Positions 7,093-59,932 of a stretch of 64,000 bases of DNA are shown piece by piece. The first letter of the stretch is position 1. The number at the start of each line of letters is the position of its first letter. Below the pieces are notes generated by a model. It saw only the letters and a program-made list of their open reading frames with translations. It did no database searches and was not told where the DNA came from. Source of the stretch: Octopus vulgaris. Taxonomy: Eukaryota. The stretch is taken from NCBI GenBank assembly GCA_951406725.2, contig OX597827.1, positions 16,926,001 through 16,990,000 on the forward strand, given 5' to 3'. The position numbers and the translations under genes were made by a program.

Positions 7093-7133
7093 ACTTAACC
7101 GGTTTCACTCTTTGGTAAAAGATTGTCAAAAGT
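7093..7133 (-). ncRNA. Minimal hammerhead ribozyme, U3-A8 variant
   Basis: actt-TTGACAA-TCTTT tacc AAAGA-gt-GAAAC-CG-GTT-aagt; stem I actt/aagt. Confidence 0.65.
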
Positions 7134-8837
7134 AACATTGAATATTATGGATTCAAAAAAGTTTTTTACATAATTGCCACATTGAATATTATGAATTCAA
7201 AAAGTTTTTTTTACATAATTGTCGCATTACATGTATAAATATAGTGTTTGGTAACAGAGATATATTAAGGGCATAAAGAAGTTCAATAGTGTGATGAGAA
7301 TATTTGGAAAAATTGGCAGAAAGGAATAAAACAAATATATTATTGGAAATTTGGTTGCGTTAATTATTGGTTGTCGCAAATTGTCACATTACATGTATAT
7401 ATATATATATATACAGTCTTTGGTAGAAAGGACATGTTAAAGACATAAGGAAGTGCAACAGTATGGTGAGAAAATTTGTAATATTGACAGAAAAAATTAA
7501 AATGGATATTTTATACATCTCAGAATATTTTGAATTGAAGGCGAGACTTTTTTTTTACTGACCTGTTCGCTTTAGCAGAAATGTTGAATTGAGAGAAAAA
7601 AATGTGTACCCAGTTTTGTTTTGTTTATGGTCCCCCTTCAAGCATCAATGATTTTGGGGTTATCGGGAGGTGAGTATGCGAGTGTGAATAGATGTGTCCG
7701 TGTGCCTGCAGTATCTGGTCAGACGGCGTCTGTTTGTCACACACATATATATATATACACACACACACACACACACATAATATACAAACACACAACACAT
7801 ACACACAACACACACACACACAGAACACACACATACACAACGCACCCACATATATAATATACACACACAGCACACAAATATAACATCTATTTATATATAA
7901 TACACACACATATATAACACACATACACACACAACACACACACACACAACACACGCACACATACATACATAATATAAATATAACACAAATACACCTAGCA
8001 TATATATACATACAATACACATACACAGCATGTGTGTGTGTGTGTGTGTGTTGTGTGTGTATGTGTGTTATATATCTGTGTGTATTATATATAAATAGAT
8101 GTTATATTTGTGTGCTGTGTGTGTATATTATATATGTGGGTGTGTTGTGTATGTGTGTGTTCTGTGTGTGTGTGTGTTGTGTGTATGTGTTGTGTGTTTG
8201 TATATTATGTGTGTGTCTGTGTGTGTATATATATATATGTGTGTGACAAACAGACGCCGTCTGACCAGATACTGCAGGCACACGGACACATCTATTCACA
8301 CTCGCATACTCACCTCCCGATAACCCCAAAATCATTGATGCTTGAAGGGGGACCATAAACAAAACAAAACTGGGTACACATTTTTTTCTCTCAATTCAAC
8401 ATTTCTGCTAAAGCGAACAGGTCAGTAAAAAGTCTCGCCTTCAATTCAAAATATTCTGAGATGTATAAAATATCCATTTTAATTTTTTCTGTCAATATTA
8501 CAAATTTTCTCACCATACTATTGCACTTCCTTATGTCTTTAACATGTCCTTTCTACCAAAGACTGTATATATATACATGTAATGTGACAATTTGCGACAA
8601 CCAATAATTAACGCAACCAAATTTCCAATAATATATTTGTTTTATTCCTTTCTGCCAATTTTTCCAAATATTCTCATCACACTATTGAACTTCTTTATGC
8701 CCTTAACATATCTCTGTTACCAAACACTATATTTATACATGTAATGTGACAATTATGTAAAAAAACCTTTTTGAATTCATAATATTCAATGTGGCAATTA
8801 TGTAAAAAACTTTTTTGAATCCATAATATTCAATGTT

Positions 8838-8878
8838 ACTTTTGACAATCTTTTACCAAAGAGTGAAACCGGTTAAGT
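8838..8878 (+). ncRNA. Minimal hammerhead ribozyme, U3-A8 variant (mirror copy)
   Basis: Same motif as 7093-7133, in the right arm of the palindrome. Confidence 0.65.
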
Positions 8879-9609
8879 AAATAAACATCTTTTAAATTGC
8901 ATTTTCAAACCTTCTTTCGTATATAATTCCACTCGTGCGATACCCCACCACTCAACTTTTATATATATATATATATAACTATACTACAAACAAAGTAAGT
9001 TAGATATTATGAAATAATAAATTAAATGTTATATATTAGATGATCGCCGTTTATTAATTAGTTATTGGCCAAATGGTCAAACTCAATTTCGCACCATGAA
9101 CGATTATATTGGCCCCCTCTGATGAGGATTTGGCGAAATTGTTTTTCCTTTTAGTTTGTTTGTGTTTTCTTATACGTTTTAAAACTTTATATATATATAT
9201 ATATATATACATATATATATATATACATATATATATATACATATATATATACACATACATATATGTATATATATACATACATGTATATATATATACATAT
9301 ATATACATATATATATATACATACAGGCATATTATATTGACACTATAGCCTCTTACAGTGATGTTACTCAACACACGTATACACATCATGAATTATACAC
9401 GCACTAAATGCACGTATACACGCACATAATACTTACACCAGCTACTTCCACACAGTTACCTATGCATACACAGACACTTTCTGCCCAATTCGCAACTACA
9501 GTATCAGTGTGTATATAGTCGGTATACATATACATACATACATACATACATACATACATACATACATACATACATACATACATACATACATATATATATA
9601 TATATAATA

Positions 9610-10020
9610 ATATCAAAGGGAAATGGAATTTGATTAAAATTAAAATTTACATTTCCAGTGGTCTAACGTGTGGATATGTTTAACCCTAGGTTGGACCTGC
9701 TGAGGAAAATCAGACCTTGTGAGTTCACCTTAACTCGCTAAAAGAAGATTAGAAATCAATTGGTTCAGGAAACTAGATGGTAAATGTTTTTCATTTCCAA
9801 ATTTATTGCTGTCGAATTTTATCCCTAATTTTTGTGGTTATAGAACCTAGCTGTTCTTTCTAGCGTGTAGAATCTCTATAAGTGGATTCCTTATGTGTTT
9901 AAATATACAATATATCGTATATATATACAGCAGGTCCAACTTAGGGTTAAACATATCCACACGTTAGACCACTGGAGATGTAAATTTTAATTTTAATTAA
10001 ATTCCGTTTTCCTTTGATAT
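9610..10020. mobile_element. Element with ~93-bp inverted termini inserted in (TA)n
   Basis: 9610-9702 is the reverse complement of 9928-10020. Confidence 0.75.
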
Positions 10021-58700: not shown

Positions 58701-59129
58701 ACATATACATATATATATATATATATATATTTAAATGTATATATATATATATATATATATATATATATATATATATATATATATATATATATTACGTATA
58801 TATATATATATATATATATATATATATATATATATATATATATTATCAAACTACAAAGAAAGAATGTCCTCTAGAGAAAATTATTTCTTTGTAGTTTGAT
58901 CGTATGTGATCTACTTCTAGAATATGGCTGTCCACATAGTGGTTTTTAGCCCTAAATATACACATGTAGAGGAATTTTCTGATTTTTCAGATTTTTATAT
59001 GCCACGCTACTGGTCTTAAATTAATATTCAATTAATCTCCCTCATTATTTAAATGTTTATACATATATATATATATATATACATGCATACATATATACAT
59101 ACATACTTATCTAAGTGCATATATATGCG

Positions 59130-59272
59130 CTCTTTTTATTTCTTCATATTCTAAAGAGCGTATGCTCGAAACGTAGAAGTCTCTCTCACATTCTCGAGCG
59201 TCAAACTAATGCACATGCTTATTGGTCGTGCACCAGTCTTCCTCTTTCATTCTTCTGTAAATTTCAACTGTA
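59130..59272 (+). mobile_element. D-related element with a core-deleted hammerhead
   Basis: AGAGC gtat GCTC-GAAAC-GTA, then GAGCGTCAAACTAAT; ends in (TA)n. Confidence 0.55.
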
Positions 59273-59816
59273 TATATATATATATATATATATATATATA
59301 TATATATACATGTGTGTATATATCTATATATGCTCGCCTTTTGTGTACACGTTTGTGCATGTATGTATATATGTATATGTATGTGTATATGTCTATGTAT
59401 ATATATGTTTATAAATATATATGTGTGTACATTCTCTTCTTTTTCCCCTACCTCCCTATTAACATAACTATCTTAGAAACTAGTTAATTTCAACTCAATA
59501 ATTTTAAACTTTTATATATTTTTAGATTTTAGTTTTCTTATCTTGTAATTTTAATTTTAAGTGTTAAGTTTTAATTTTCAATTTTAATTTTGAATCATAA
59601 TTTTGATTCTTAATCCTTTATCTCATATAATTTAACGGCTATTAAACTTGAAATACAATTTTAAACAACTGCACTAAACTATTGACCTTATAACCTTACT
59701 TAAATTGGCCTTCCACTCTCAATCTACTGAAACTTTAACGTTTGACGTCTAGCCCACATATAATACTGACATATCTATATCATTACCGTTCGATTCACTT
59801 CAACATTTAAGTTTAA

Positions 59817-59932
59817 TTTGTCAAAATATTTTCGTCGCTATGAGACCGCGACCTGTTCACTGACAAAAATCCGTGCTGTTAATTTGTCAAAATATTTTCG
59901 TCGCTAAAATCTGCGACCTGTTCACTGACAAA
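59817..59932 (-). ncRNA. Tandem pair of minimal hammerheads, G3-C8 variant
   Basis: tttgtca-GTGAACA-g-GTCGC...GCGAC-GAAA-ATAT-TT-tgacaaa at 59817-59867 and 59883-59932, inside the fold-back 59786-60031. Confidence 0.65.

Follow-up and report, generated by a model that had tools for sequence, protein, structure and literature searches.

Matched changes at the hammerhead 3-8 core pair in amplified elements of the Octopus vulgaris genome

Which bases can a hammerhead ribozyme carry at its core pair while the element that bears it goes on spreading through a genome? The question is raised by 64,000 nucleotides of Octopus vulgaris DNA (bases 16,926,001-16,990,000 of contig OX597827.1, assembly GCA_951406725.2; called the window hereafter), part of a genome of 2.8 Gb in 227 contigs, in which hammerhead-like motifs with different bases at core positions 3 and 8 lie close together. 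Positions 3 and 8 form a tertiary Watson-Crick pair. PMC3088659 counts 3-8 as a core base pair, and PMC6155905 gives the 2'-OH of residue 8 as the proposed general acid. Since residue 8 acts through its 2'-OH, the bases at 3 and 8 should be swappable. Our reading, which we consider probable, is that the motifs belong to the 3' repeats of Penelope-like elements (PLEs) and to a non-autonomous retrozyme, and that 3 and 8 changed in matched fashion, likely because source elements that spread must keep a fold for which self-cleavage is predicted, mostly as dimers.

Hammerhead motifs in the window

Microsatellites and short repeats are abundant in this setting. The window was scanned with a structural descriptor of the hammerhead that left positions 3, 4, 7 and 8 unconstrained, and 25 block dinucleotide shuffles served as control. 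Ten matches reached a score of at least 15, against a mean of 0.2 and a maximum of one in the shuffles, and all ten are Watson-Crick at 3/8 (four C-G, four U-A, two G-C); shuffle matches at a score of at least 12 were so in 15 of 42 cases. Nine of the ten had been listed in the original prediction, which was made from the sequence without database searches, and the remaining one (34953, plus strand, C3-G8) had been overlooked. All eleven cores of that list are present with the heptamers given there; its numbers mark the low edge of each motif rather than the core, and seven of the eleven motifs lie on the minus strand. Core starts are 6322, 7129, 13467, 15134, 32891, 59860 and 59925 on the minus strand and 8842, 15799, 43673 and 51996 on the plus strand. 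Two listed motifs are decayed, 13467 (score 11) and 6322 (broken stem I, uncalled by the scan). Because 7129 and 8842 are parts of one palindrome, and 59860 and 59925 of one tandem pair, the eleven cores amount to nine insertions of eight families. A variant CCGACGA of family D, with U4C and an extra nucleotide before stem II, had also been announced, and it is present at 23482 and 36104, both on the minus strand, the extra nucleotide being A. The forecast that a strict CUGANGA search would miss most such motifs proved right, as it matches only 5 of 14 motifs in the window and 19 of 46 in an unselected 1 Mb.

The motifs conform to the type I three-way junction (N3-U4-G5-A6-N7-N8-A9 / G12-A13-A14 / A15.1-U16.1-H17), the exceptions being 6322 with its broken stem I and family D with C4. 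An Rfam search of the window gave no match at gathering thresholds and placed no motif in a hammerhead model; at E<=10, no hammerhead stood among the best 150 of 483 rows, in which microsatellite matches to microRNA models dominate. The hammerheads and their insertions are as follows.

6200..6386, minus strand: decayed copy of family D, CUGAAGA core at 6322-6316, stem I broken
6988..8983: palindrome of two inverted, 5'-truncated 3' ends of Penelope-like family A, arms 98% complementary
7091..7135, minus strand: family A hammerhead, U3-A8, palindromic stem III, core 7129
8836..8880, plus strand: family A hammerhead in the second palindrome arm, U3-A8, core 8842
13432..13471, minus strand: decayed family A hammerhead, U3-A8, 84% identical to the 7129 copy over 61 nucleotides (nt), score 11
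15050..15140, minus strand: hammerhead F, C3-G8, long stem II, 12-nt palindromic stem III, score 21 in the scan, also folded
15438..16003, plus strand: family B insertion of retrozyme type, about 1.3 units of a repeat of about 360 nt plus an inverted partial copy
15783..15843, plus strand: canonical extended type I hammerhead of family B, U3-A8, core 15799-15805, predicted cut after 15828
23453..23485, minus strand: family D hammerhead, C3-G8, U4C, extra A before stem II
32837..32896, minus strand: hammerhead H of an old family, C3-G8, 4-bp hairpin stem III, 42 genome matches
34949..35035, plus strand: hammerhead I, C3-G8, absent from the original list, score 15, relatives in loci L062 and L322
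36074..36108, minus strand: family D hammerhead, C3-G8, U4C, extra A
43665..43710, plus strand: family C hammerhead, U3-A8, at the 3' end of an A-related Penelope-like family, core 43673
51993..52103, plus strand: hammerhead G, C3-G8, long stem II, score 20 in the scan, also folded
59817..59867, minus strand: family E hammerhead, G3-C8, extra G before stem II, palindromic stem III, core 59860
59883..59932, minus strand: family E hammerhead, G3-C8, tandem partner about 65 nt upstream, core 59925
59940..60150, plus strand: inverted family E copy, core deleted

The 3-8 pair across families

Are whole families paired at 3/8, or only the copies that happen to lie in the window? A census was made in 1.84 Mb of DNA, comprising the unselected 1 Mb and a remainder chosen by pattern or protein. 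With 3 and 8 left free, its 278 matches fell into 18 multi-locus clusters, 17 of which have a Watson-Crick majority (C-G in 11, U-A in five, G-C in one), the exception being a microsatellite artefact. The expectation that family consensus sequences would be paired, and not unpaired as often, therefore holds. Single-locus clusters were paired in 18 of 34 cases, and the others look mostly like false matches; in the unselected 1 Mb, 37 of 46 matches were paired, against 7 of 21 in eight shuffles. Permutation puts the odds of such pairing at 1 in 74,256, or at 1 in 5,460 after merging A, C and the related family J, figures that overstate the case because families are related. Hand counts of the first 100 matches listed per family agree: A and B gave 100 U-A each, C gave 98 U-A and two U·G, D gave 93 C-G, five C·A and two U·G, and E gave 93 G-C. 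No family shows a C·A majority. Some variation goes with subfamily, at positions 7 and 17 in A and D and at position 7 in B. Reversed patterns gave no match for A, B, C, D, E or a three-state retrozyme related to B, against hundreds to thousands for the real ones.

How many separate events stand behind these states? Family A has 2,062 exact pattern matches in the genome, often as inverted pairs spaced 0.7-9.7 kb. The palindrome at 6988..8983 corresponds to the 3' portion of longer copies, which bear a frame of 847 amino acids with reverse transcriptase (RT), CxxC and GIY-YIG about 2 kb upstream on the same strand. In stem II of the two palindrome hammerheads (7091-7135 and 8836-8880), a U10.1·U11.1 mismatch with five pairs reads better than a stem with two extra bases, and a U·G/U-A exchange in this stem distinguishes subfamilies. 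Family C (364 genome matches) has A-like frames upstream in 3 of 20 loci. Family J (L211-L234, L249), found via GIY-YIG, is a recent PLE with an open frame of 781 amino acids in many copies and a U3-A8 hammerhead 0.4-1.1 kb past the GIY-YIG end. In a tree of 22 C-terminal protein stretches, A, C and J fall together on one side of a 100/100 branch, and on these alignments the three share a single change to U3-A8. Further PLE traits were found as well: copies that are inverted and 5'-truncated or in partial tandem, and insertion at microsatellites. Many GIY-YIG loci had no downstream hammerhead at the thresholds used. In the window itself, 100 of the 231 candidate frames were compared with Pfam, which returned only Tc1/mariner remnants and no PLE protein, and tblastn with six PLE queries found none either.

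Family E, with G3-C8, has at least 5,345 copies, counted as genome pattern matches. In six loci a GIY-YIG frame ends about 1 kb upstream, and a CxxC linker is present; the RT core was found only in database relatives, which are 20-29% identical to A over long stretches. The E branch in the protein tree is long and its placement unsure. Among upstream-anchored copies that retain the core, 27 of 29 read by eye are G3-C8. An A-like frame in locus L142 was considered as the parent of E and rejected, being a neighbour at the truncation point. A search for another G3-C8 family, built on an ACSSGT stem III, turned up none: the pattern matched 76 times and its reverse 100 times, and stem III of other types lay outside the search. 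By eye, most E copies (L001-L030; window 59930-59950) start about 15-25 nt upstream of the core, and the next upstream stretch is clearly included in only 2 of 30, as though truncation favoured a point shortly ahead of the ribozyme and not its cut site.

Family D is the commonest, with 15,647 genome matches, or 9,511 with the core left free. Among the first 100 of the latter listed, 69 have C at position 4, 29 have U and two have A. C4-G5 is a CpG; as the mirror decay product C4-A5 occurs only five times, the C4 and U4 subfamilies are both taken as real. No coding frame was found when 30 D loci were extended. A U4C case separate from D occurs in the PLE family F12 (L245, L246, L121), with C3-G8 about 500 nt past the GIY-YIG end. 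In the old family H, only 7 of 16 copies are still C-G.

Family B (1,395 exact genome matches) has an extended stem I with an internal loop. In 19 of 30 loci, some of which overlap, its units follow one another head to tail at intervals of 360-364 nt, within the roughly 170-400 nt of retrozyme units. Folded as a circle, a 356-nt stretch of B in the window gave -112 kcal/mol against -80 +/- 5 for 40 mononucleotide shuffles, the stretch including the inverted part, which inflates self-pairing. Contigs from three sequencing runs, which are guessed to be RNA, cover B and give neither strand nor ends. Judged by repeat and motif, B is of the non-LTR (non-long terminal repeat) retrozyme type. A stem covariation test, confined to ten retrozyme-type sequences, found 13 of 20 pairs changing on both sides, and 90% of cells pair as against 72% in shuffles.

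The three-state retrozyme, which lies outside the window, has 317 exact matches genome-wide; by hand count, its first 100 listed copies are U3·G8 in 47, U3-A8 in 33, C3-G8 in 20 and C3·A8 in none. Units of different state are homologous, L031 (C3-G8) and L329 (U3-A8) being 77% identical over 486 nt. A tree of 29 of 33 loci was built after masking the three core positions. In it all C-G units fall into a single clade, whose sister is a U3 group made up of a U-A clade and a second clade, mostly U·G and itself divided in two. The U3 group also carries the U10.1·U11.1 mismatch. Counted on this tree, from which the outgroup L152 dropped out, three changes are needed whether U·G is a retained intermediate or arose from U-A. 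Thus the supposed independence of the families stands in part: A, C and J go back to one change, and several cores are copies of one insertion, while the alignments and trees point to at least three separate switches, in the A/C/J clade, in family E and in the retrozyme lineage.

Does the fourth Watson-Crick version, A3-U8, occur as well? Its pattern has 236 genome matches, against 391 for the reversed control. Among the first 100 listed are two groups of related rows, of about 13 and 18. Ten loci of each (L390-L409) are homologous and diverged, with mean identities of 62% and 56%; stems I and II are complementary across copies, although a strict stem I in any one copy spans only 0-6 bp. A profile search in DNA that had not been selected for the core yielded a single copy (L272:2116-2174), which has A3-U8 (1 of 1), and the second group matches the flank of a family C copy. 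A3-U8 is likely a family consensus, and only likely because the search pattern fixed those bases. The two groups, old and hammerhead-like, resemble families C and A. In the C-like one, a pyrimidine tract with YAG, similar to a splice acceptor, precedes the core, whose first three bases are AUG.

Selection on source elements and rival explanations

By what route could both positions change while the element persists? Source elements with a paired core would fold, would likely cut tandem transcripts and would spread, and their genomic copies would then decay unconstrained. Two motifs in tandem or inverted transcripts could pair by way of their palindromic stem III and cleave 3' of position 17, the element's protein perhaps assisting; a short palindromic stem III implies dimers (PMC4209133). 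Because individual copies in the genome decay without hindrance, selection, if any, must act on the source elements. Such selection would fall only on masters and would tolerate weaker cores (U·G, U4C), and C-G and U-A would interconvert through a U·G state still able to amplify. Experiments on an Anolis PLE hammerhead bear on the pair: C3G or G8C alone abolishes cleavage, the double change partly restores it, and cleavage requires protein (PMC11167929). It is likely that elements that spread had to keep a fold for self-cutting, cleavage being predicted from their sequences, and selection on master elements is likely but lenient. The original prediction of selection for catalysis is thus upheld as far as the paired family majorities go; the constraint is looser than it supposed (U3·G8, U4C), and catalysis as the selected trait is what we infer.

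Several points weigh against this reading, above all if the selection is thought to be strict and for catalysis. U4C, reported to reduce activity (PMC3088659), is the majority state in D, the largest family, and also in clusters F10 and F12. Families with U·G or U4C amplified well, and whole tandem arrays of units of about 360 nt are filled by U3·G8 (L350-L389, for example L374, L379, L384 and L385). Element ends do not coincide with the predicted cut but lie about 85-135 nt beyond it. For D, F, G, H and I, no upstream RT/GIY-YIG frame was found. PLE hammerheads cleave poorly in vitro (PMC4209133), and the Anolis PLE inserts in vitro without need for ribozyme cleavage, no read ending at the site (PMC11167929).

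Might the pair then be kept for a folded shape, for example for the binding or positioning of RT or endonuclease, in motifs that are catalytically weak or idle? We hold this to be unlikely, even though it would accommodate the U4C majority in D, the amplified U·G subfamily, the weak activity of minimal PLE hammerheads (PMC4209133) and the protein-dependent Anolis cleavage that insertion does not need (PMC11167929). A mere shape does not readily explain why G5, A6, G12, A13 and A14 are fixed save for scattered single-copy changes in two core-free searches (D and C), why position 17 avoids G at the family level, or why family B retains the full extended stem I with its internal loop, as in active retrozymes.

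A second thought is that 3-8 is under no selection, a founder state simply being copied, so that a few chance paired events were inherited by many families. The single origin of A, C and J, the free decay of single copies and the sighting of only one G3-C8 family fit this well. It nevertheless seems quite improbable, as G3-C8 and A3-U8 each require two transversions that happen to restore pairing, C·A is absent from the first 100 listed copies of the three-state retrozyme, and a mismatched majority occurs in none of the 17 real clusters. It is hardly credible that AT-rich, repeat-rich DNA produced the motifs by chance: loose descriptors do yield about 2.6 false matches per Mb and Rfam recognises none of the motifs, but 10 matches stand against 0.2, copies number hundreds to thousands against none for reversed patterns, the motifs keep a fixed position downstream of PLE frames, and nine of the eleven motifs on the list already rule chance out, while the remaining two are decayed members of the same families.

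Selection on source elements thus remains the explanation that we prefer. A bolder version of it would state that all four Watson-Crick forms of 3-8 were amplified in one genome, with the first natural G3-C8 and A3-U8 and a thriving U3·G8 that records the compensatory path, and that all of them cleave; this we put forward tentatively, as somewhat doubtful.

The window holds other features besides. Remnants of a Tc1/mariner transposase lie at 37619-38564 on the minus strand (PF13358, PF01498). Tandem units of 184 nt with a B-box-like motif at 629-1114, 2553-3103 and 27804-28179 are presumably a tRNA-derived short interspersed nuclear element, and a hairpin of the unit yields weak false hammerhead matches (3138, minus strand).

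Known systems and meaning

Engineered G3-C8 hammerheads were reportedly made by Martick and Scott in 2006 and by Przybilski and Hammann in 2007, and Lünse et al. in 2017 are said to have described a large set of PLE hammerhead variants, a work outside our literature search. The engineered G3-C8 swaps that we could consult (Frangieh et al., 2024, PMC11167929; PMC3884650) restore part of the activity, in a PLE hammerhead included; those were made in the laboratory, whereas family E is natural, amplified and known from sequence. In our search G3-C8 came up solely as a laboratory construct, and no family with G3-C8, A3-U8 or U·G in nature was retrieved; earlier records may exist, as the search covered neither figures nor one of the supplementary files of Cervera and de la Peña (2014). 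Hammerheads in PLEs and retrozymes are already in the literature, as are U3-A8 and U4C in nature and the extra nucleotide.

The minimal PLE hammerheads of Cervera and de la Peña (2014, PMC4209133) share with those described here the type I topology, a short palindromic stem III, an extra nucleotide between 9 and 10.1, the location in element repeats, pairs on opposite strands and mostly truncated copies; the Schistosoma Cercyon elements among them have U3-A8 and about 1,300 matches. In the portion of that source available, no G3-C8, A3-U8, U3·G8 or U4C family was found, and a search of its supplement names no cephalopod. The protein frames resemble PLEs of the Neptune/Nematis type with a C-terminal endonuclease (EN+; Craig et al., 2021, PMC8557442) in RT, CxxC linker, C-terminal GIY-YIG, inverted 5'-truncated copies and microsatellite targets; a difference is the low identity of the E relatives to A noted above. 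Family B and its relatives correspond to animal non-LTR retrozymes (Cervera and de la Peña, 2020, PMC7229834; Li et al., 10.64898/2026.07.22.740005) in tandem units of about 360 nt that carry a canonical extended type I hammerhead and in which no coding frame was seen; the core of B is U3-A8 and its relatives split into C-G, U·G and U-A, whereas the term 'U3-A8' occurs 0 times in the available text of PMC7229834. Natural covariation of C3-G8 to U3-A8 and the U10.1·U11.1 mismatch were described by Perreault et al. (2011, PMC3088659), where a viroid U4C variant, weak in vitro yet viable, is also cited. As far as that source was available, core variants are rare in it, whereas in the octopus they are the majority state of families with hundreds to thousands of copies, G3-C8 included.

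What would these families tell us? Counts of ribozymes and retrozymes based on a fixed CUGANGA miss over half in such genomes, 27 of 46 matches in the unselected 1 Mb being missed, about three of them expected to be false. The families also provide a ready test set for whether PLE hammerheads are kept for cutting. If our reading is true, nature has run the laboratory series of 3-8 swaps by itself, with a likely intermediate caught between two paired states.

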